A stretch of DNA of 64,000 nucleotides from Gemmatimonadales bacterium (GCA_036002045.1 DASYTT010000037.1:39608-103607), one strand, 5' to 3'; positions 2,180 through 53,378 are shown, numbered from the stretch's first letter. The notes: generated from the letters alone by a model not told the origin. Numbers and translations: made by a program.

Positions 2180-3943
2180 ATGCCAGCCACTTCGCTGCGG
2201 ACGCACTCGGGCGGCCTGCTCACGCGTGCGGATCTCGGCTGCACGGTCCGGCTGGGCGGCTGGGTGCATCGCCGGCGCGACCTGGGCGGGCTCGTGTTCA
2301 TCGACCTGCGGGACCGCAACGGTCTGGTGCAGCTCTCCTTCGATCCAGCCTTCACACCTCCCGCCGTGCTGCAGCGCGCCGCCGACTGCGGGGTCGAAAC
2401 CGTGGTGTTCGCCGAAGGCACCGTGGCGCTCCGCCCCCAGCCGGCAAAAGACCCCGGCATGCACTCGCGCGAAGTCGAAGTGCGGGTCTCTGCACTCGAA
2501 GTGAGCGGCCCCGCGCTCACGCCGGCGATTCCGGTGGCGCGCAAAGACGGGGAAGAGCTGGCGGCGGAGGAGCTGCGGCTCAAACACCGGATCCTCGATC
2601 TCCGGCGACCGGAGCTGCAGGCCAATCTCATCCTGCGGCACCGGCTGCTGCAGCGGGGGCGGCGCGCCTTGAGCGAGCTGGGCTTTCTCGAGATCGAGAC
2701 GCCGATCCTCACCAAGCCAACGCCTGAGGGTGCGCGGGATTATCTGGTGCCTTCCCGGCTGCATCGCGGCGAATTCTACGCGCTGCCCCAGTCGCCGCAG
2801 ATCTACAAGCAGCTGCTCATGGTGGCGGGCTTCGATCGCTACTTCCAGATCGCCCGCTGTTTTCGCGATGAGGATCTGCGTGCCGACCGACAGCCGGAAT
2901 TCACCCAGATCGACGTGGAAGCCTCCTTCGTCGCGCAGGAGGATATCCTCCAGGTCATCGAGCAAGTGCTCGTGGCCCTCTGGGAGGAAGCCGGGCACCA
3001 GCCGGAGCGACCCTTCCTGCGCATGGGGTGGCGCGAGGCCATGGAGCGCTTCGGCACCGACAAGCCGGACCTTCGCTTCGGCTACGAAATCGCCGATTTC
3101 ACCGGGAAGCTTGGCGGCGATGCGGCTCCCTTCGTTCGCGATGCCGTGGGCAGCGGCGGCCGCCTGCGCGGCATTCTGGCACCGGGGGGGGCCGCGCTCT
3201 CGCGTAAGGATCTCGACGCCCTTTCCGCCCTGGTGAAGGAAACGGGCGGTGGCGGACTGCTGTGGGCCCGGCGGGGAGCTGCCTGGGAGGGATCGGGCGT
3301 CAAGGCGCTGGGCGCCGCAACGCTGGCGGCCCTCGAGGGCAGCGAAGGCGACCTGCTGCTGGCCGTCGCAGGGCCGGACCGGCTCGCGAACCCGGCACTC
3401 CACGCCGTCCGAGGCGCGCTGATCCGGAAGCTCACGCCGGCTCCCCTGCGGGCGCACGCTTTTCTCTGGGTGGTGGACTTTCCGCTGTTCGAGCCGGATC
3501 CGGAGACGGGCGCGCCCACCTTCGTGCACCACCCGTTCACCGCGCCGCACCCGGAGGACGTGCCCTTCCTGGAGAGCGACCCGAGCCGCTGCCGCGCCCT
3601 GCACTACGACGCGGTCTACAACGGCGTCGAGCTGGGCAGCGGCTCGATCCGCATCACCGACCCCGCGGTGCAGCGCAGCATCTTCCGGCTGCTGGGACTG
3701 GCGCCGGAGGAGATCCGGCGCCGCTTCGATTTTCTGCTCGAAGCGCTTGCGGCCGGCGCGCCGCCCCACGGAGGCTTCGCGATCGGATTCGATCGACTCG
3801 TGATGGTGCTGGCCGGGGCCAGCTCGTTGCGTGACGTCATCGCCTTCCCGAAAACCACCGCCGCCCGCGCCCTGTTCGAGGGTGCCCCGACCCCGGTGAG
3901 CGGTGCGGAGCTCGCCGCGTTGCATCTGGTGGTGGGGCCGTGA
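2180..3943 (+). CDS. aspS: Aspartyl-tRNA synthetase
   Basis: Class II aaRS motifs (FRDEDLRADRQPEFTQID, GGGxxRI-like GSGSIRI, GFDRLV) with an OB-fold N-terminus. I moved the start to ATG 2180 (MPATSLRTH...); track ORF 2105 begins at an upstream GTG. Confidence 0.9.
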   Translation: MPATSLRTHSGGLLTRADLGCTVRLGGWVHRRRDLGGLVFIDLRDRNGLVQLSFDPAFTPPAVLQRAADCGVETVVFAEGTVALRPQPAKDPGMHSREVEVRVSALEVSGPALTPAIPVARKDGEELAAEELRLKHRILDLRRPELQANLILRHRLLQRGRRALSELGFLEIETPILTKPTPEGARDYLVPSRLHRGEFYALPQSPQIYKQLLMVAGFDRYFQIARCFRDEDLRADRQPEFTQIDVEASFVAQEDILQVIEQVLVALWEEAGHQPERPFLRMGWREAMERFGTDKPDLRFGYEIADFTGKLGGDAAPFVRDAVGSGGRLRGILAPGGAALSRKDLDALSALVKETGGGGLLWARRGAAWEGSGVKALGAATLAALEGSEGDLLLAVAGPDRLANPALHAVRGALIRKLTPAPLRAHAFLWVVDFPLFEPDPETGAPTFVHHPFTAPHPEDVPFLESDPSRCRALHYDAVYNGVELGSGSIRITDPAVQRSIFRLLGLAPEEIRRRFDFLLEALAAGAPPHGGFAIGFDRLVMVLAGASSLRDVIAFPKTTAARALFEGAPTPVSGAELAALHLVVGP

Positions 3944-4910: not shown

Positions 4911-4942
4911 CGGAGGGACGGAGGGACAGAGGGCCAGAGGGA
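4911..4942. repeat. Four tandem octamers C(G/A)GAGGG(A/C), which are Shine-Dalgarno-like
   Basis: Read directly: cggaggga cggaggga cagagggc cagaggga. The array begins 2 nt after the phoH stop (TAA 4906-4908) and ends 3 nt before GTG 4946. Confidence 0.85.
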
Positions 4943-4945
4943 CAG

Positions 4946-9099: not shown

Positions 9100-10137
9100 A
9101 TGGATTTCGACAGCCTGCTCGCCGAGCTGGGCTCCGGGCGCACCGCCGCGCTGGCACGCGCCATTTCCCTGGTGGAGAATGGCCGGCCCGGCTTCGAGCA
9201 GCTGCTCGCCGCAGTGCATCCGCGACTCGGCCACGCGCAGCGGATCGGCATCACGGGTCCTCCGGGGGCGGGCAAATCGACCCTCACCCAACAGCTGGTG
9301 CAGCGCTGGCGGGAGCGGGGGCTGACGGTGGCCGTGGTGGCGGTGGATCCCACCAGTCCCGCGACAGGCGGCGCGCTGCTGGGCGACCGAATCCGGATGG
9401 AATCCATCGCGCTCGATCAGGGCGTGTACATCCGCTCCATGGCGACGCGGGGATCGCTGGGAGGGCTCGCCACCAGCACGCGGGAGGTGTGCGACGTCCT
9501 CGATGCCGGCGGCTACCATCGCATCCTGATCGAAACGGTGGGGGTGGGCCAATCCGAGCTCGCCGTCACCAGCATGGCGGACAGCACGGTCCTGGTCCTG
9601 GTGCCTGAATCGGGCGACGGGATCCAGGCGCTCAAAGCGGGGGTCATGGAGCTGGCGGATATCTTCTGCGTCAACAAGGCGGACCGGCCCGGCGCGGCAA
9701 ATCTCGCCCGGGAGATCGAGGTGACGCAGGGAATCCGGCGGGGAAATGCGTTCCGGGGAATTCGGGCGCACCACGGCGTGGTGGGAAGACGGGAAGCAGA
9801 TGCGGGGGAGAGTGGTAGCCTCCCTCCGAGCTGGGAAGCTCCGGTGCTCCTCACGACCGCCACCACGGGAAGCGGTATTGCGGAGCTCGCCGAGGCGCTC
9901 GAACGGCACCATGAATGGATGAAACAGACCGGTGAGCTCGCGAGGCGGCGACGCAAGCGCTTTGCGGCACGGACCCGGGAAGTCGTGGATCGCGCGATGC
10001 ACCGCTGGGTCTGGGGAGACACGCGGGCGGAGGAGTTGCTGAGCGAACGAATCGACGAGGTCGCTGCGGGCCGACTAAGCCCGTACGAGCTGGCAGCCGA
10101 GATCGTGACCGGCCTCAAGGAGGGAGCGCGGGTATGA
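9100..10137 (+). CDS. meaB: Methylmalonyl-CoA mutase-associated G-protein chaperone (MeaB/ArgK)
   Basis: P-loop [22 protein letters not shown] and NKADR motifs. Sits immediately upstream of the mutase. Confidence 0.85.
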
Positions 10138-11798
10138 GCGCGAGCGAGGAGCTCGAGCGGTTGCGGGCCGAGGTCGCCGCCTGGCGGGCGCTCTACGCCG
10201 GGATACCGCAGCGAGCCGGCGTCGAGTTCACCTCGGTGTCCGGCCGCGAAGTGCAGCCGGTGTATACGCCGCTCGACCTGGAGCACCGCCTCGGCAGCCC
10301 GAGCGAGCTACCCGGGAGGTACCCGTTCACCCGCGGGATTCATCCCACGATGTATCGGGGCCGGCTCTGGACCATGCGCCAGTTCTCGGGGTTCGGAACC
10401 GCGGAAGACACCAACCAGCGCTACAAGTTTCTGCTGAGTCGCGGCCAGACCGGTCTCTCGGTGGCCTTCGATTTCCCGACCCTGATGGGTTACGACTCGG
10501 ATCATCCCCGCTCCGAAGGGGAAGTAGGCAAATGCGGGGTGGCGATCTCCAGCCTCAAAGACATGGAGGATCTGTTCGACGGCATTCCGCTCGACCAGGT
10601 CTCCACCTCGATGACGATCAACGGCCCCGCCGCCATACTGTTTTGCTTCTACGTGGCGGCGGCGGAGCGCCAGGGTGTCGACATCTCCCGCATCCAGGGA
10701 ACCGTGCAGAACGACATCCTCAAGGAATACATTGCGCAGCACGCCTGGATTTATCCGCCGGAGCCGGCGCTCAAGATCATCGTGGACATGTTCGAGTGGG
10801 CGGCCGAGCATACCCCGAGCTGGAACACGATTTCAATCTCCGGGTACCATATCCGCGAGGCGGGGGCGACGGCTGCGCAGGAGCTGGCCTTTACGCTGGC
10901 CGACGGCTTCTGCTACGTGGAGCACGGCATCGCCCGGGGCCTCGCGGTGGACCGCTTTGTCCCCCGGCTCTCGTTCTTCTGGGACGTGCACAACGATTTC
11001 TTCGAGGAAGTCGCGAAGCTCCGTGCCGCGCGGCGGATCTGGGCCCGGCACCTGCGGGAACGCTACGGCGCCCGCGACGAGCGAAGCTGGAAGATGCGCT
11101 TTCACTGCCAGACCGCCGGCGTGACGCTCACGGCGCAGCAGCCTGCCAATAACATCGTTCGGGTGGCCTACCAGGCGCTCGCGGCGGTGCTCGGCGGCGC
11201 GCAGTCACTGCACACCAATGCCCTCGATGAGACGCTCGCGCTCCCCACGGAGGAGTCCGTGCGGGTGGCGCTGCGCACCCAGCAAATCCTCGCGTACGAG
11301 ACCGGCGTCCCCAATGTCGCCGATCCGTTGGGCGGATCCTATTACGTCGAGGCCCTGACCGATGCGATGGAGCGCGAGGCGGAGGGACTCTTCGCCGAGA
11401 TCGAGGCGCAGGGCGGGGTGGTCGCGGCCATCGAATCGGGCTGGTTCCAGCGCCAGATCGCGCGAAGCGCCGCGCGATTCCAAGAGGAAGTCGAGCAGGG
11501 CCGCCGAGTGATCGTCGGCGTCAACGAGTGCATCGAGGACGCCGAAGGCCCGGTCGAGATTCTCCGCATTGGCGATGAAGCGGATCGCGCGCAGCGAGTC
11601 CGGCTGGCTCGGCTGCGGGCTGAACGGGACCCGGCCCGAGTCGAACGGAGCCTCGAAGCGCTGCGGACCACGGCGGCGGCCGATCGGAATGTGCTCCCCG
11701 CTATGCTGGATTGCGCGCGAGCATACTGTACGCTCTTCGAGATTCGCGAGGTGTTGGAACGCGTGTACGGAGCCTACCGCGAGCCGGTTTTCTTCTAG
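10134..11798 (+). CDS. B12-dependent acyl-CoA mutase, catalytic (large) subunit, methylmalonyl-CoA mutase family
   Basis: [28 protein letters not shown]...[13 protein letters not shown]...GVAISSL are signature blocks of the MCM/ICM TIM-barrel domain. No B12 domain is fused. Substrate is not resolved from sequence alone. Confidence 0.85.
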
Positions 11799-11805
11799 GA
11801 GCCCA

Positions 11806-12972
11806 ATGCCCTCCCGAGCACTCAGTGACGTGCGCCGCCAGCTGCAGCGGCTGGTGCGGCTGCAGCCCGGCAAGCACTGGATCGTGAGCTGCTATCTCAA
11901 GCTGGAACCGCGGGATCGCAGCCGCGGCAAGTACCTCATCAAGCTGAAGAACCGCACTCGCGAGGTCAGCGAGGCGCTGCCCGCCGAGGGCCTGACCCGG
12001 AGCGAGGCCGAACAGGTCCGGGAAGACCTTCGCCGCCTGCAGGCCATGCTGCAGCGTCCCGACGCCCTGCCGCCGACCCAGGGACTGGCGGTGTTCGTCT
12101 GCAAACCGCTCGACTTGTTCGAAGCCATTCCGCTGCCGCGAGTGCATCGCTCTCGGCTGTCGGTGGCACGCACTCCGCTGGTGCGCGAGCTCGCTGCGCT
12201 GGAGGACGAGGTGGGCCGCCTGCTTGCCGCCGTGCTCGACAAGAGCGGCGCGTCGCTCTACGAGGTGACCGCGTTCGAGGCACGCAAGCTGGAAGACCTT
12301 CCGGCCAGCACGCCCCGAGGCCACCGCTTTCATGGCGACCGGCACGATGCGCCCGGCAAGGGCGAGCAGGGCTATCACAACCGGCTCCGGCATGACCGCG
12401 AACAGTTACTTGCCGCGGTAGCCCAGCGGCTGTTCGATCTCGACCGCCAGGAGCCGGTGCGCGGGCTGGTGCTCGCCTCCGCGGGGAGCGAGGCGGATTC
12501 ACTGCGGATGTTCCTGCATCCCTACATCGCGGGTAAAGTTCTCGGCACTGCGCGGTTTGTGCGGCGCGGCGGAGCTTCGCTGGCCGAGCTGCACGGGATG
12601 GTGCTGGCGGTGCGCGAGAGCTTCGAGCGGAAGCTGGAGCGCCATCTGGTGGCGGAGATGCTGCTGGGCCAGGGATCCGGATGGGCCGTGAACGGGATCG
12701 CACCGACCCTCGATGCGCTCTCGCGCGGCCAGGTGCGCACGCTGCTGGTACGGGCGGATGCCAGCGTCCCGGGTTTCCGCTGCGCGGCGAGCGGGCGGCT
12801 CACCCTCAGCGCGAAGGAATGCCGGGGGCTCGGCGACGCGGCGCCGGTGCCCGACGTGATCGACGACGCGATCGAGGAAGCCCTCCGCCAGCGGCTCGAT
12901 CTGGACGTCGTCTTCGAGCCCGATGCCGCGGATACCATTAACGGGTTAGCGGCATTGTTGAGGTTCCGATAA
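11806..12972 (+). CDS. eRF1/Pelota-like (bacterial baeRF-type) release-factor-like protein
   Basis: 388 aa from ATG 11806 (AGGAG 5 nt upstream). The central loop HGDRHDAPGKGEQGYHNRLRHDR resembles eRF1 HGRGGQSALRFARLR, with GEQ in place of GGQ. The C-terminal block GWAVNGIAPTLDALSRGQVRTLLV is like the eRF1/Pelota domain 3. The upstream part of track ORF 11569 overlaps the mutase and is discarded. Confidence 0.55.
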   Translation: MPSRALSDVRRQLQRLVRLQPGKHWIVSCYLKLEPRDRSRGKYLIKLKNRTREVSEALPAEGLTRSEAEQVREDLRRLQAMLQRPDALPPTQGLAVFVCKPLDLFEAIPLPRVHRSRLSVARTPLVRELAALEDEVGRLLAAVLDKSGASLYEVTAFEARKLEDLPASTPRGHRFHGDRHDAPGKGEQGYHNRLRHDREQLLAAVAQRLFDLDRQEPVRGLVLASAGSEADSLRMFLHPYIAGKVLGTARFVRRGGASLAELHGMVLAVRESFERKLERHLVAEMLLGQGSGWAVNGIAPTLDALSRGQVRTLLVRADASVPGFRCAASGRLTLSAKECRGLGDAAPVPDVIDDAIEEALRQRLDLDVVFEPDAADTINGLAALLRFR

Positions 12973-13075
12973 GTGACAGGTGGCAGGTGGCAGGTGGCAG
13001 GTTGCAGGTGCACCCTCCGCCGCCGCCTACCCGCCACCTACCTGCCACCTGCCACCTGTCACCTGTCACCTGAGG
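12973..13075. repeat. Heptamer-array hairpin, element A (GTGGCAG / CCTGCCA units)
   Basis: The left arm holds 5-6 tandem heptamers and the right arm 5-6 complementary heptamers. I paired 12973-13002 with 13040-13069 base by base: 30 bp, made of 29 Watson-Crick pairs plus one G.T(U). It starts 1 nt after stop TAA 12970-12972. Its last unit overlaps the GAGGAG SD of the next gene. Confidence 0.9.
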
Positions 13076-13081
13076 AGTCCT

Positions 13082-13495
13082 ATGCCGCTCAGCCGCCCTA
13101 TTCGGGTGCTGGTAGCTAAACCGGGGCTCGACGGCCACGACCGCGGCGCCAAGGTAGTGGCCGCGGCGCTGCGCGACGCGGGGATGGAGGTCGTCTATAC
13201 CGGCCTCCACCAGACTCCGGAAATGATCGCGACCGCGGCTGTGCAGGAAGATGTGGATGTGGTAGGTCTCTCGATTCTGAGCGGCGCCCACATGACGCTC
13301 TTCCCCAGAGTGCGGACTCTGCTCGATGAAATGGGGCGCCGGGATGTCCTGCTCACCGGGGGTGGCATCATTCCCGGCTCCGACATCGAAGCGCTGCAGC
13401 GGCAGGGTGTCGGGAAGCTGTTTGGTCCCGGCACCCCGACCAGCGAGCTGATCAGCTACATCAAATCCTGGGCGGCCGGACACCTTGAGCGCTGA
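13082..13495 (+). CDS. Acyl-CoA mutase B12-binding (small) subunit
   Basis: 138 aa with the cobalamin DxHxxG motif ([12 protein letters not shown]) and GGIIP. ATG 13082 is preceded by GAGGAG. Confidence 0.85.
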
Positions 13496-15122
13496 GGGCT
13501 CTCCGGCCAAGCTCTCGCGCCTGCGCGAGCTCACCGCCGAGTATCTGACGCTCGCGAGCAAGCTCCGCGAGGGAGGCGGCGCAGCCCGGGTCGCCAAGCT
13601 GCACCAGCAGGGGAAGCTCTCCCCCCGCGAGCGGGTTACGGGCCTGCTCGATCCGGGAACCCGTTGGATCGAGATCGGGTTGCTGATCGCCTACGACCGC
13701 TACGATGGACAGGCCCCCGGCGCGGGCGTCATCACCGGCATCGGCACCATTGCGGATCGCCCGGTCGTCGTCGTCGCCAATGACTCCACGGTAAAGGCCG
13801 GCGCCTGGTGGCCGGAGACGATTCCCAAAATGCTCCGCGCCCAGGAGATCGCGATGCGCCAGCGCATCCCGATCGTCTATCTGGTCGACAGCGCCGGCGT
13901 GAACCTGCCCTATCAGGGTGGCGTTTTCCCGGGACAGTACGGCGCGGCGCGGCTCTTCTATTACAACGTGCTGATGCGGCGGTATCTCCAGGTCCCCCAG
14001 ATCGCGGCCGTCATGGGGAGCTGTGTGGCGGGGGGTGCCTACTTGCCGGCACTCTCCGACGTGATCTTCATGGTGGAAGGCACCAGCTTCATGGGATTGG
14101 GTGGCCCCAACCTGGTGGCCGGAGCCACCGGCCAGCGGGTGGACGGGGAAACGCTGGGCGGGGCGCGCACCCACACCGCGGTGAGCGGCGTGGCGCACTA
14201 CCGGGCTCCGAACGATGCCGAGTGTCTGGCGCAGATCCGTGAATACGTTGCCCGCCTGCCCAGAAGCGAAGCCGTGCAGCACAATGTGCTCCCTGCCGCC
14301 CCGCCGCTCCGGCCCGCTACCGCGCTCTACGACCTGCTGCCGCACGATCACCGCATGTCCTACGACATGCACGGGGTACTGGCCTGCCTGCTGGATGGCG
14401 GCGCCTTCCGGGAATTCCAGCCCGAGATTGCCGCCGAGCTGCTCTGCGGTCATGGCCGGATCGAGGGGTGGCCGGTGGCGCTGCTGGCCAACCAGCGCGG
14501 TCTCGTCAAGGCAAAACCCGGCGAGCGGCCGCGTTTCGGCGGCATCCTGTACACTGAGAGCGCCGAGAAGGCGGCCTATTTCATCGAGACGGCCAATCGC
14601 GAGCGACTGCCGATCCTCTTCGTGCAGGATGTGAGCGGATTCATGGTGGGCCCGGAAGCCGAGCACTCGGGAATCATTCGCGCCGGTGCCCGTTTCGTCG
14701 AGGCGATGGCTGCGGCGTCGGTACCCAAGCTCGTGCTCACCGTCAATCACGCCTCCGGGGCAGGGTACTACGCGATGGCGGGCCAGGGCTTCGATCCCGA
14801 CTTCATCCTCAGCTGGCCGACCGGCCGGATGGGGGTCATGGAGGGGGAATCGGCGATCATGGCGGTGCACGGCCCCGAGATCGAGCGTGCCAAGACGGAA
14901 AAGCGGGAAGTCGCCGCGGGCACCAGAGAAGTCATCGAGCAGATGCGGGCCGACTACGAGCGCGATCTCGATGCGCGGCACGCGGCCGCGCGAGGCCAGG
15001 TCGATCTCATCGTGACCCCGGAAGAGACCCGTGAGGTGCTCGCTCACCTGCTGCGGGTCACCGCGCAGAACCCGGGGCCCCATCTGGGCCCGTTCGTGCT
15101 TCCCGTGCACACTGCCTCCTGA
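13485..15122 (+). CDS. Acyl-CoA carboxylase carboxyltransferase (beta) subunit (PccB/MccB-like)
   Basis: Carboxyltransferase blocks [24 protein letters not shown] and [21 protein letters not shown] start as given in the track; the start is uncertain. Confidence 0.8.
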
Positions 15123-44398: not shown

Positions 44399-44481
44399 GC
44401 CCGAGTGGCGGAATGGCAGACGCAGCGGACTCAAAATCCGCCGGGGGCAACCCCGTGCGAGTTCGACTCTCGCCTCGGGCA
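44399..44481 (+). tRNA. tRNA-Leu (anticodon CAA), type II with a long variable arm
   Basis: I folded the cloverleaf by hand. Acceptor GCCCGAG/CTCGGGC, anticodon stem GCGGA/TCCGC with loop CT-CAA-AA, variable arm CGGGGGCAACCCCGT, T arm GCGAG-TTCGACT-CTCGC, discriminator A. No CCA is encoded. Confidence 0.9.
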
Positions 44482-44485
44482 TGGT

Positions 44486-44595
44486 GGCTATGGGCTATGG
44501 GCTATGGGCTGTTGGTCGAAAAAACGTTGTTGCGAGCACTGGAACCCGAGCTACAAGGAGCAGCCGATAGCCCATAGCCCATAGCTCATAGCTCC
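44486..44595. repeat. Heptamer-array hairpin, element C (GGCTATG / TAGCCCA units)
   Basis: Left arm is GGCTATG x3 plus GGCTGTT at 44486-44513. Right arm is CAGCCGA TAGCCCA TAGCCCA TAGCTCA TAGCTCC at 44561-44595. Positions 44491-44511 pair with 44561-44581 (21 bp, one mismatch). The loop is about 49 nt. The element starts 5 nt after the tRNA 3' end. Confidence 0.9.
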
Positions 44596-47981: not shown

Positions 47982-47983
47982 AA

Positions 47984-48062
47984 GGTGGCAGGTGGCAGGT
48001 GGCAGGTGGCAGGGAGGTGGTAGCACCTGCAACCTGCAACCTGCAACCTGCGACCTGCAACC
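47984..48062. repeat. Heptamer-array hairpin, element B (GGTGGCA / CCTGCAA units)
   Basis: Left arm is GGTGGCA x4 at 47984-48011. Right arm is CCTGCAA x3, CCTGCGA, CCTGCAA at 48026-48060. The apex is GGTG-GTAG-CACC. The arms are complementary 6 of 7 per unit. It starts 2 nt after stop TGA 47979-47981. Positions 47983-48007 are identical to 12978-13002. Confidence 0.9.
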
Positions 48063-49839: not shown

Positions 49840-50652
49840 GTGAGCGATTCGCGGCGCCGCTACCTGGCCATCCAGCGCGAGCTGGGCGGGAACGAGGTCA
49901 TTCTCTCGGCTCCGCTCGGCAGGTCAGTCGGTGAGGACGGCGAGGTCAGTGCGGTCAGTGAGGTCGGTGAGGTCAGTTCTCCGTCCCCACCGTCCTCACC
50001 GTCCTCACCGCCCAACTGGCGTCGCGGCGCCCCCCCGATTCCCGACACGCCCGGCCTTAGCGTCGTTGCCCCGCCGCGTGGCCTGATGGACCCGCCGCCG
50101 GAGTGGAACACCCTCGAGGAAGTCAGCAGCGCGATCGCGGTCTGCCGCAGCTGCTTTCTGTGCGAGGGCCGTACCCGGACGGTGCCGGGAGAGGGAAGCC
50201 CGCGCGCCGAACTGCTGTTCGTCGGAGAGGGGCCCGGTCAGGTCGAGGATGCGACCGGGCGGCCGTTCGTGGGACGAGCCGGGGAGCTGCTCACCCAGAT
50301 CATCGAGGCCATCGGACTGCGTCGCGAGGATGTTTTCATCGCGAATGCCGTCAAGTGCCGTCCGCCGCAGAATCGCAAGCCGCTGCCCGACGAGCTCGCC
50401 GCCTGCTGGCGCTACCTCGAGCGCCAAATCGAGCTGCTGCGCCCCAAAGTGATCGTCGCCCTGGGTGCAACCGCGGCCGAAACTCTGCTCCAGGTCCGGC
50501 GGAGTCTCGCGGAACTGCGCGGCAGAGTACATTCTTACCGTGGCATCCCGCTGGTGGTGACCTATCACCCGGCGGCCCTCCTCCGCAACCCGAATTGGAA
50601 GAAGCCGACCTGGGATGACATCCGTATCGCCCGACAGCTTCTCGACCGTTGA
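49840..50652 (+). CDS. Uracil-DNA glycosylase, family 4 (Fe-S type) with an N-terminal extension
   Basis: C..C.LC, GEG.P.AELLFVGEGPG..ED..G.PFVG.AG.LL and HP..LLR blocks. The N-terminal roughly 90 aa include the repeat-encoded segment. Confidence 0.8.
   Translation: MSDSRRRYLAIQRELGGNEVILSAPLGRSVGEDGEVSAVSEVGEVSSPSPPSSPSSPPNWRRGAPPIPDTPGLSVVAPPRGLMDPPPEWNTLEEVSSAIAVCRSCFLCEGRTRTVPGEGSPRAELLFVGEGPGQVEDATGRPFVGRAGELLTQIIEAIGLRREDVFIANAVKCRPPQNRKPLPDELAACWRYLERQIELLRPKVIVALGATAAETLLQVRRSLAELRGRVHSYRGIPLVVTYHPAALLRNPNWKKPTWDDIRIARQLLDR
49921..50012. repeat. 9-mer-array inverted repeat, element E, in frame inside udg
   Basis: Left arm is GAGGTCAGT GCGGTCAGT GAGGTCGGT GAGGTCAGT, preceded by GGTGAGGACGG. 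Right arm is CCGTCCCCA CCGTCCTCA CCGTCCTCA CCG. GGTGAGGACGG (49930-49940) is exactly complementary to CCGTCCTCACC (49990-50000 and 49999-50009). It translates as RSVGEDGEVSAVSEVGEVSSPSPPSSPSSPP. Confidence 0.85.
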
Positions 50653-52007: not shown

Positions 52008-53378
52008 GTGGCTCGCGGCCGCTCGGTCTATCGCTGCGCCGAGTGCGGCCACGATCACCCCAAGTGGGCAGGGCGCTGCGAGGCTTGTGGTGAGTGGAAT
52101 ACGGTGGCGGAGGAGCCGGTCTCGGTCGGTCGGACGGTCGGACGGTCGGGCGGTCGGTCAAAAGCCTTACCGACCTCCCCGACCTCACCGACACCACTGT
52201 CCGACGTTCAGGAATCCCGCCTGGTTCGCTGGACGACCGGAATTCCTGAATTCGATTTCGTGATCGGTGGGGGCATCGTCCCCGGCTCGATGGCCTTGAT
52301 CGGCGGCGAGCCGGGCATCGGCAAGTCCACGCTGCTGCTGCAAACCGCGGCGAGGTTGCGCGCTCAGGGTCGCCACGTGCTGTATGCGAGCGGCGAGGAG
52401 TCCCCCGAGCAGATTCGTCTCCGCGCCGATCGCCTGGTGGAGGACGCCGGGCCGGTGCTGGTCCTGGGGGAGACCCGGCTAGAGGAAATCGTCGCGGCAG
52501 CCCGCTCCACCGGCGCCGAGCTGCTGGTGCTCGACTCGATCCAGACTGTCTACACCGACGAGCTTGAGGGCGCTCCCGGCAGCGTCGGTCAGGTGCGCGA
52601 ATGTGCCGCGCGGCTGATGCGTTTCGCCAAGGAGAGTGGCACCGCCGTCTTCGTGGTGGGCCACGTGACCAAGGGCGGGGCCATCGCGGGTCCGAAGACG
52701 CTGGAGCACATCGCGGACACCGTGCTCTACTTCGAAGGCGAGGGATCGCTCGACTACCGGCTGCTGCGCGCCACCAAGAACCGCTTCGGCTCCGTGGATG
52801 AGCTGGGGGTCTTCTCCATGTCCGAGCGAGGGCTCTCCGCCGTGGCCAACCCTTCCGCGGTGTTTCTTGCCGCGCGTTCCGCAAGCAGCACCGGGAGCGC
52901 GGTCACCGCGCTCATGGAAGGCACCCGACCGGTCCTGGTCGAAGTGCAGGCGCTCGCCGCCCCTTCGGGCTACGGCACTCCCCAACGGGTAGCCACTGGG
53001 CTCGATCCCAAACGGCTGGCGGTGCTGCTCGCGGTGCTCGAGCGGCGGGGTGGGGCGAGCTTTGCGCAGCTGGATGTCTTCGTGCAGGTCACCGCCGGCG
53101 TGCGGCTTCGCGAACCCGGAGCGGATCTGGCCGTGGCGGCCGCGCTGCTCTCCAGTCTCCATGGCCGGCCGACTCCAGCCGACTCGCTTTACCTGGGAGA
53201 AATCGGGCTCGGCGGGGAAATCCGCCCCATCGGGGGCCTGGAGCGCCGGCTGGCCGAAGCGGGCAGGCTGGGCTTCCGCCGGGCCTTCGGATCGTCGCGC
53301 CAGGGCTCGGAGATCCCCGGACTTCGGCACATTCCGCTCTCCCATGTCGACGAGCTGGTCCGCGCCCTTGCCGCTTGA
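52008..53378 (+). CDS. radA: DNA repair protein RadA/Sms
   Basis: C4 zinc finger (YRCAECGHDHPKWAGRCEACGEW), Walker A GEPGIGKSTLLLQ, KNRFG motif and a Lon-like C-terminal domain. Confidence 0.9.
   Translation: MARGRSVYRCAECGHDHPKWAGRCEACGEWNTVAEEPVSVGRTVGRSGGRSKALPTSPTSPTPLSDVQESRLVRWTTGIPEFDFVIGGGIVPGSMALIGGEPGIGKSTLLLQTAARLRAQGRHVLYASGEESPEQIRLRADRLVEDAGPVLVLGETRLEEIVAAARSTGAELLVLDSIQTVYTDELEGAPGSVGQVRECAARLMRFAKESGTAVFVVGHVTKGGAIAGPKTLEHIADTVLYFEGEGSLDYRLLRATKNRFGSVDELGVFSMSERGLSAVANPSAVFLAARSASSTGSAVTALMEGTRPVLVEVQALAAPSGYGTPQRVATGLDPKRLAVLLAVLERRGGASFAQLDVFVQVTAGVRLREPGADLAVAAALLSSLHGRPTPADSLYLGEIGLGGEIRPIGGLERRLAEAGRLGFRRAFGSSRQGSEIPGLRHIPLSHVDELVRALAA
52117..52197. repeat. GGTC-rich / CCGACC-rich inverted repeat array, element F, in frame inside the radA linker
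   Basis: Left arm is CGGTC TCGGTC GGTC GGACGGTC GGACGGTC GGGCGGTC GGTC at 52117-52159. The loop is CAAAAGCCTT. Right arm is CCGACCTCC CCGACCTCA CCGACACCA at 52170-52196. GGTCGGT (52152-52158) pairs with ACCGACC (52169-52175), and GGTCGGG (52144-52150) pairs with CCCGACC (52178-52184). It translates as VSVGRTVGRSGGRSKALPTSPTSPTP. Confidence 0.8.

Follow-up and report, generated by a model that had tools for sequence, protein, structure and literature searches.

Paired "convergent" heptamer simple-sequence repeats have been described in Xanthomonas (unit GGGAATC) and Nostoc (unit GGGGAYT) (Rehm et al., 2015; PMC4692102). Each Xanthomonas genome holds 70-75 such pairs, most of which lie on the sense strand, no more than 50 bp from a stop codon and between aligned ORFs. 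The arrays are transcribed, and between species their site is kept whereas length and sequence vary; no function was found (PMC4692102). Among the long simple repeats of prokaryotes, those with heptamer units are the commonest; they are ascribed to polymerase slippage, according to the summary of Mrazek et al. (2007) given in PMC4679880. REP hairpins act as barriers to 3' exonucleases, stabilize the upstream mRNA, and stall ribosomes if they lie near a stop codon (PMC12306157).

We analyzed 64,000 nucleotides of DNA from a Gemmatimonadales bacterium; this whole stretch is called the window below. One of its elements, E1, fills the spacer from the stop codon of a baeRF gene to the Shine-Dalgarno (SD) sequence of the gene for a B12-binding subunit. 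E1 is a palindromic microsatellite, in which a second array, built from the reverse complement, comes after about five GTGGCAG heptamers. It shares with the Xanthomonas repeats the iteration of a heptamer, a convergent array nearby, a position just past a stop codon between plus-strand genes, and occurrence at several loci. The unit GGGAATC/GGGGAYT with its G-quadruplex potential is not found in E1, whose unit GTGGCAG contains GG doublets only and no G3 runs.

The junction element and its host operon

The genes of the host operon and the parts of E1 were located as follows (TRF, Tandem Repeats Finder):

9100-10137, MeaB (Pfam)
10134-11798, mutase large subunit (Pfam)
11806-12972, + strand, baeRF_family10 (eRF1-like) protein, 388 aa (Pfam PF18854, 31.2 bits against a cut-off of 27.1; gene call in assembly L001)
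12973-13010, + strand, left G-rich array of E1: GTGACAG, GTGGCAG three times, GTTGCAG, GTG; 12973-13002 is the 5' arm (TRF, inverted repeat, pair list)
13011-13039, + strand, loop of E1, C-rich; 13035-13039 pair with 13006-13010 (TRF, MFE structure)
13040-13072, + strand, right C-rich array of E1: ACCTGCC twice, ACCTGTC twice, ACCTG; 13040-13069 is the 3' arm (TRF, inverted repeat, pair list)
13072-13077, + strand, SD GAGGAG, followed by TCCT (4 nt) and then ATG 13082 (sequence, fold)
13082-13495, + strand, B12-binding small subunit of methylmalonyl-CoA mutase, a separate gene, 137 aa (Pfam PF02310, 88.3 bits; gene calls)
13485-15122, carboxyltransferase (Pfam)

Pfam confirms the flanking genes as the eRF1-like and B12-subunit genes of the initial annotation (baeRF_family10 and B12-binding). 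The baeRF gene has 1977 homologues, and those that are named all come from Gemmatimonadales. All 11 Gemmatimonadales lineages examined have a family-10 baeRF gene between the gene for the mutase large subunit and a separate gene for the B12-binding small subunit, and the order meaB, mutase, baeRF, B12, carboxyltransferase, subtilase is kept among them. A longer reading of the B12-binding subunit (ORF 12980-13495, GTG start, in frame with ATG 13082, 34 additional N-terminal residues) was rejected because it lacks an SD, is absent in relatives, and gene callers begin at 13082.

The inverted-repeat finder pairs 12973-13002 with 13040-13069, i.e., two arms of 30 nt that are 97% complementary and 37 nt apart, and the RNAfold pair list gives 29 Watson-Crick pairs and a single G-T at 12983/13059, just as had been counted by hand in the initial annotation. 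That annotation also placed a C-rich loop of 37 nt between the arms. The figure holds for the arm spacing but not for the open loop, which is shorter because RNAfold adds five inner pairs (13006-13010 with 13035-13039). Tandem Repeats Finder describes the arrays as (GTGGCAG)x5.4 at 12973-13010 and (ACCTGCC)x4.7 at 13040-13072, both head-to-tail with a period of 7 and 90-96% matches. It also finds the 11-mer CCGCCACCTAC in the loop, repeated 2.8 times and spanning 13020-13050, and the C-rich "loop" looks like decayed right-arm units. The outermost units mirror one another (GTGACAG on the left, CTGTCAC on the right), and the 5' arm contains 19 G and 5 C.

Folding of the region, which the initial annotation had proposed as a check, gave a strong structure: the plus strand of 12955-13095 has an energy of -83.3 kcal/mol (z = -7.94), with 0 of 200 shuffles as good. 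The minus strand reaches -84.9 kcal/mol (z = -6.34), and both strands fold equally well. The predicted RNA duplex is 30 bp long; RNase III substrates are uninterrupted duplexes of about 20 bp or more. At the gathering threshold Rfam returned nothing for the window besides tRNA, and at the E-value threshold E1 gave only generic long-hairpin matches, which were eukaryotic miRNA precursors scoring 16-41 bits against thresholds of 58-168.

E1 is set closely between the two genes. The TAA at 12970-12972 ends the baeRF gene and the stem begins at the next base, so the earlier placement of the stem directly after the upstream stop codon was correct. The 3' end of the stem lies about 3 nt ahead of GAGGAG, and the B12-binding gene keeps both its SD and its start codon intact. 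In the fold, UAA and GAGGAG come to lie within 3 nt of the helix end, and in the MFE structure the GGAG of the SD pairs with UUCC 12964-12967 of the upstream gene. Two other metagenome assemblies (L001 and L002) have exactly the same bases at the junction, which is therefore not an assembly artefact.

Orthologous junctions and related arrays

The orthologous operon was obtained from ten other lineages via baeRF homologues. In the following list, identities are those of baeRF to the window, and spacers are measured from stop to start codon:

Window, spacer 109 nt, unit GTGGCAG
L003, baeRF 94%, spacer 28 nt, no hairpin
L004, baeRF 90%, spacer 17 nt, no hairpin
L005, baeRF 87%, spacer 9 nt, no hairpin
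L132, baeRF 85%, spacer 2 nt, no hairpin
L133 (= L134), baeRF 81%, spacer 93 nt, GGCAACA / TGTTGCC
L138, baeRF 80%, spacer 79 nt, CGAAGAG / CTCTTCG
L135 (= L136), baeRF 79%, spacer 94 nt, AGGAGTC / GACTCCY
L137, baeRF 77%, spacer 86 nt, AGGATTC / GAATCCT
L139 and L140, baeRF 73%, stop and start codons overlap, no hairpin

A hairpin is present at this junction in five of the 11 lineages and absent in six, the four closest relatives included, and the lineages without it retain the same operon. The window is placed inside a hairpin-less clade (L003, L004, L005 and L132). When 12973-13071 are removed from the window, TAA-GAGGAGTCCT-ATG is left, which is much like the spacers of the relatives. The short spacers of the close relatives, the nesting in a hairpin-less clade and the relative-like sequence that remains after removal all show that E1 is recent in the lineage of the window.

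Where a hairpin is found, it starts 0-8 nt past the stop codon, each arm holds about four units and the collinear stem spans 26-30 positions, and a strong SD (AAGGAG or GAGGAG) is retained just 3' of it in L133, L135, L137 and L138. In the other lineages with a hairpin, the SD-UUCC pairing is not kept. The suggestion that the hairpin sets SD accessibility is in line with the MFE fold of E1. L133 and L135 are 94% identical over baeRF plus B12 protein and their flanks align, whereas their hairpin units are wholly different. The L135 hairpin has one mismatch per unit.

The register-anchored comparison of four lineages, a description rather than a blind test because the count was fitted to the structure, shows 91 of 104 stem cells paired, against 30-48 of 104 with the partner slid; 12 of the 26 columns have changed on both sides and still pair. 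Arms taken from different lineages mostly fail to pair with each other. This count was used instead of RNAalifold on the raw MAFFT alignment, which was uninformative with the arms out of register. Some units also match sequence at junctions that lack a hairpin. The L135 unit equals the SD-plus-spacer AGGAGTC of hairpin-less junctions, the L138 unit CGAAGAG resembles CGAGAAG in the L004 spacer, and the outer unit CTGTCAC of the window resembles CCGTCAC in the L003 spacer. These matches of 6-7 nt are only suggestive; they hint at in-place seeding and could be chance.

For the view put forward in the initial annotation, namely that the hairpin acts on the expression of the operon, the comparison with relatives has two sides: the hairpin is missing from the four nearest ones, and four other lineages have an equivalent hairpin built from different units. 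The latter observation speaks in favour of that view, and it is compatible with either function or a mutational hotspot.

The window contains further arrays of this build. Both TRF and our own scan indicate three noncoding and two coding paired arrays in the 64 kb, each a G-rich tandem followed by its reverse complement. Besides E1 these are:

E2, 44486-44594, + strand, (GGCTATG)x3.6 ... (AGCCCAT)x5 (TRF, fold)
E3, 47983-48062, + strand, (AGGTGGC)x4.4, 11-nt loop, (ACCTGCA)x5.4 (TRF, fold)
E4, 49927-50010, + strand, G-rich 9-mers then complementary C-rich 9-mers, in frame (TRF, fold z = -3.6)
E5, 52122-52192, + strand, G-rich 4/8/12-mers then C-rich 9-mers, in frame (TRF, fold z = -2.5)

E2, with the complementary units GGCTATG / CATAGCC, begins 5 nt past tRNA-Leu(CAA) (44399-44481), upstream of the M17 aminopeptidase (pepA) gene. 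It folds at -71.9 kcal/mol (z = -7.2), and the sense strand is better than the antisense strand (-62.3 kcal/mol). E3 lies between the TGA of a TonB-plug protein gene and the start of a YicC-like gene; its fold has an energy of -62.8 kcal/mol (z = -5.6) and one G.A mismatch in every unit. Only the repeat unit is common to E1 and E3, which differ in loops, right-arm variants and flanks, and the unit of E2 is unrelated to theirs. Within the window, heptamers occur in noncoding DNA only and the coding arrays have periods divisible by three, which is the pattern expected of simple-sequence repeats. E4 lies in the N-terminal extension of a UDG-family protein and E5 in the linker between Zn-ribbon and RecA of a RadA-like protein, and both encode low-complexity linkers that are G/E/V/S-rich first and S/P-rich after.

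Other intergenic sites show similar changes. A metagenome scan around the YicC-like gene gave six short loci, which served for the E3 junction. The window carries heptamers there, hexamer hairpins (GTGTGA / TCACAC) are found in L126 and L128/L129, and L127 and L130 lack a hairpin. E3 has here replaced part of a conserved TAACGCGTTAT leader. At the mgtE-meaB junction, octamer hairpins are found in L133 (7173-7254), L135 (7163-7262) and L138 (1177-1240), all with one unit family, GNCGCAAR / YTTGCGNC; in the window, L004 and L005 the spacer is 20 nt long. These three hairpin-bearing genomes thus carry three unrelated units at baeRF-B12 and one shared unit family at mgtE-meaB. A GGC(G)CAAC-like unit is common to two junctions in L133. 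The spacer from the PhoH stop to the YbeY start (4913-4945) holds an SD-like G-rich octamer array, (GGAGGGAC)x4, which in L004 is (GGCAGGGG)x4.8 (3065-3102) and in L133 (2984-3030) and L135 (2974-3020) consists of other units. These octamer arrays directly follow the stop codon with a different unit in each of the four genomes, and no clear complementary arm was found at any of the four.

To see the wider distribution, an exact-pattern scan for (GGTKRCA)x3 was run with one genome per species, and at least 120 loci are among the matches listed. CAGGTNN arrays among them come from Nostocales, Saprospiraceae, Chloroflexota, Acidobacteriota, Planctomycetota, Gemmatimonadota, Verrucomicrobiota, Patescibacteria and others. 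Most of the arrays sampled from the matches listed have no partner; roughly one in eight is joined by a complementary array, always downstream. Several of the hairpins start 0-7 nt past the stop codon of a long ORF. In 26 of 27 paired elements, irrespective of strand, taxon or unit, the 5' arm has more G than C and the 3' arm is C-rich; within the subset not retrieved with a G-rich search pattern, this is so in 14 of 15. Not all of these cases are independent phylogenetically. Since an inverted repeat reads alike on both strands, this arm order is a property of the element, independent of gene or replication direction. E1 belongs to a class of paired "convergent" short tandem repeats found at several junctions in this Gemmatimonadales lineage and in other phyla.

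More complex arrangements were also seen. In the nested hairpins of a Thermoflexus MAG (L092, 2300-2480) and of Gemmatimonadales MAG122 (L028, 6800-7010), outer heptamer arms enclose inner arms of another heptamer, with mirrored gradients of unit variants. A Gemmatimonadota MAG (L084, 6739-6797) has (CAGGTGG)n followed by (CAGGGAG)n and (ACGGCTA)n arrays, which appear to interrupt an ORF resembling a protein kinase N-terminus (RYRIERELG...).

Origin and possible effects of the element

The reading that we favour, with a probability of roughly 0.55, is that E1 is a palindromic microsatellite formed in place by slippage and template switching, which is read through, has REP-like effects and has no mutase-specific function. 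A short local sequence would have been expanded by replication slippage, after which intrastrand template switching or hairpin-templated repair would have made the second arm and kept it complementary, with fast turnover of units. Coupling between the arms is supported by mirrored unit variants, both at the ends of E1 (GTGACAG/CTGTCAC) and in the gradients of L092, and the one mismatch per unit in E3 and L135 indicates that units are homogenised faster inside an arm than they are corrected from one arm to the other. Some observations sit less well with this origin. Slippage alone leaves the complementarity of the arms and the G-rich-first order (26 of 27) unaccounted for, the recurrence of the E1 unit at 47983 in the same genome hints at dispersal, and recurrence of a hairpin in five of 11 lineages, with stem length held and units replaced, could reflect selection for a junction-specific function.

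As to its effects, E1 would be transcribed within a meaB-mutase-baeRF-B12-carboxyltransferase message. It has no U-tract, and it probably does not terminate transcription but is read through with the operon. An RNA duplex of 30-35 bp would probably block 3'-to-5' exonucleases just past the stop codon, as REPs do. It would also be long enough for RNase III, so that the two halves of the message could differ in stability, and it could stall a ribosome nearing the baeRF stop codon. Because the fold sets the stop codon beside the SD, a ribosome terminating at UAA may melt the base of the stem and free the partly paired SD, which could explain why an insertion is tolerated at a junction that is tightly coupled in relatives.

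Regulation specific to the mutase is not supported, because six of 11 lineages lack the hairpin, unrelated junctions carry elements of this kind, and no bias towards the sense strand was found. When 10 hairpins were compared by folding energy and G.U count, the sense strand was better in 4 and the antisense strand in 4, with 2 ties. This leaves selection at the RNA level, and with it RNA rather than the DNA palindrome as the relevant form, unsupported. A role as 3' stabilizer or processing site, one of the suggestions of the initial annotation, suits a 30-bp duplex without U-tract inside an operon better than a terminator does. The accompanying notion of a device particular to the mutase operon is not borne out, as E1 is one member of a repeat class in the window, is absent in the four nearest relatives and has similar elements at unrelated junctions. 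These observations also bear on a selected regulator of this one junction, by which E1 would set the ratio of large subunit to B12-binding subunit through SD occlusion, ribosome stalling at the baeRF stop or segmental mRNA decay. Such a regulator would fit the presence, in five lineages and at exactly this junction, of a hairpin with about four units in each arm although the unit is fully replaced, the full covariation, the strong SD retained 3' of the stem and the pairing of GGAG with UUCC in the MFE fold. It is also favoured by the mgtE-meaB unit conserved in the same three genomes (L133, L135 and L138), from which it follows that the turnover at baeRF-B12 is not simply a genome-wide rate. 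We nevertheless consider it unlikely, given that the same operon does without a hairpin in six of 11 lineages, with spacers of 2-28 nt or overlapping codons and including the four closest ones, and that like elements occur at functionally unrelated junctions and after a tRNA; the missing strand bias and the SD-UUCC pairing, which is not conserved elsewhere, add to this. A broader reading is unlikely: palindromic microsatellites anchored at stop codons, with about four units per arm and the G-rich arm always 5', might be maintained as a device or arise from a dedicated polar process, with structure alone being selected or regenerated. The baeRF-B12 hairpin would then have been kept while its sequence was wholly replaced within about 6% protein divergence, possibly because it shields C-rich untranslated RNA from Rho and marks a processing or coupling point. 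If this were true, the heptamer repeats, unexplained since 1990, would have a testable role.

Insertion of a mobile hairpin of the MITE, REPIN or IS200/IS605 type after stop codons, by a transposase encoded elsewhere, is improbable. The insertion is clean when compared with close relatives, the GTGGCAG unit is found at two loci of the window and the GGC(G)CAAC-like unit at two junctions of L133, and the elements are extragenic and stop-codon-adjacent as REPs are, with CAGGTNN arrays in many phyla. But E1 and E3 have only the repeat unit in common, the E2 unit is unrelated, and two genomes with 94% identity (L133 and L135) have different units at the orthologous junction. Comparison of the boundaries with the junctions of L003, L004 and L005 revealed no target-site duplication or terminal inverted repeat beyond the arrays, the 64-kb window has no second full copy of E1, and BLAST of E1 found nothing in phages and partial 44-nt array matches in two plasmids. 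A mobile element was rejected for E1 on the lack of target duplication, second full window copy and phage match. It is very improbable that E1 works as a terminator or attenuator separating meaB-mutase-baeRF from the genes for the B12 subunit and the carboxyltransferase: the stem is followed by GAGGAGUCCUAUG rather than a U-tract, the enzyme encoded upstream cannot do without the subunit encoded downstream, and the 2-28 nt spacers or overlapping codons of relatives imply co-transcription. No terminator-like site was found in 12600-13400 (the 3' flank of E1 is GAGGAGTCCTATG), and the scan gave no promoter-like site for the gene at 13082. What this idea does explain is a very stable GC-rich hairpin straight after a stop codon and the location of E2 after a tRNA gene, where a 3'-end signal is expected; moreover, REP/BIME can attenuate transcription (PMC12306157). 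Equally far-fetched is an element acting at the DNA level, as a protein-bound cruciform or hairpin or as a pause site for replication or recombination, with its position in the transcript incidental. Units differ between loci and lineages, so there is no conserved sequence that a protein could recognize; the periodic mismatches (one per unit in E3 and L135) would weaken a cruciform, and a location 0-3 nt past stop codons and just ahead of the SD is difficult to account for if genes are left out. This holds even though the two strands do not differ in how well they fold, the G-rich-5' order belongs to the duplex and does not depend on gene direction, and the mirrored variant gradients of the nested hairpins point to homogenisation at the palindrome level.

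Two ideas about the units themselves were discarded. A conserved CAGG core, suggested by four junction hairpins that align as CAGG+NNN, is broken by CGAAGAG of L138, GGCTATG of E2 and GTGTGA of L126. SD mimicry would make the left arms tandem SD copies and the right arms mimics of the anti-SD. It agrees with the GGAGGGAC array at 4913 and with AGGAGTC and AGGTGA, but is not general, as GGCAACA, GGCTATG and CGAAGAG do not fit.

For annotation, these results mean that such hairpins are not to be read as operon-specific riboswitches, terminators or attenuators. The class can be recognized by a simple rule, i.e., a tandem array and then its mirror array just past a stop codon. The baeRF-B12 junction provides a clean comparative series, with five different units, six sites that are empty, stems of constant length and arms in strict order, and it could be used to test slippage and template switching against selection for intercistronic RNA structure.

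Comparison with known repeat classes

Several described classes share part of the features of E1. Long near-perfect duplexes of more than 20 bp between cistrons are known as RNase III processing hairpins, for example in the early mRNA of phage T7 and in the rnc leader. E1 likewise forms a near-perfect intercistronic duplex, in its case a predicted one, whereas the T7 sites have conserved internal loops. The REP/BIME sequences of enterobacteria and pseudomonads resemble E1 as extragenic GC-rich hairpins just past stop codons in operons, and they may resemble it in function. On the other hand, REPs have a genome-wide consensus of about 35 nt and a link to RAYT transposases, whereas E1 is without a consensus, consists of tandem units and has a stem that is two to three times longer. 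The many near-identical copies typical of REP/REPIN were not found in the 64-kb window, where E1, E2 and E3 differ in unit, loop and length.

The long simple-sequence repeats of 5-11 nt (Mrazek et al., 2007), the STRR heptamers of cyanobacteria and the TAACTGA repeats of Beggiatoaceae are, as outlined in PMC4679880, like E1 intergenic and often close to start or stop codons; they have many copies per genome, are scattered over phyla and are ascribed to polymerase slippage. In the same outline they are mostly single direct arrays, with one inverted case among 170 sets for TAACTGA (PMC4679880).

The open-access literature yielded no description of such elements in Gemmatimonadota and none of a unit being replaced outright at an orthologous junction. 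The replacement seen here between lineages at one orthologous junction is not reported in the paper on Xanthomonas (PMC4692102), which belongs to a different phylum. The Xanthomonas and Nostoc repeats have one dominant unit per genome and G-quadruplex potential, whereas here the units differ by locus (GTGGCAG, GGCTATG) and have no G3 runs. In build they agree with E1: they are heptamer arrays, two of which converge (the first is G-rich on the plus strand, the second on the minus strand), they can form a stem-loop, and about four units are preferred. E1 is the same kind of element as the Xanthomonas repeats and represents a different sequence family.
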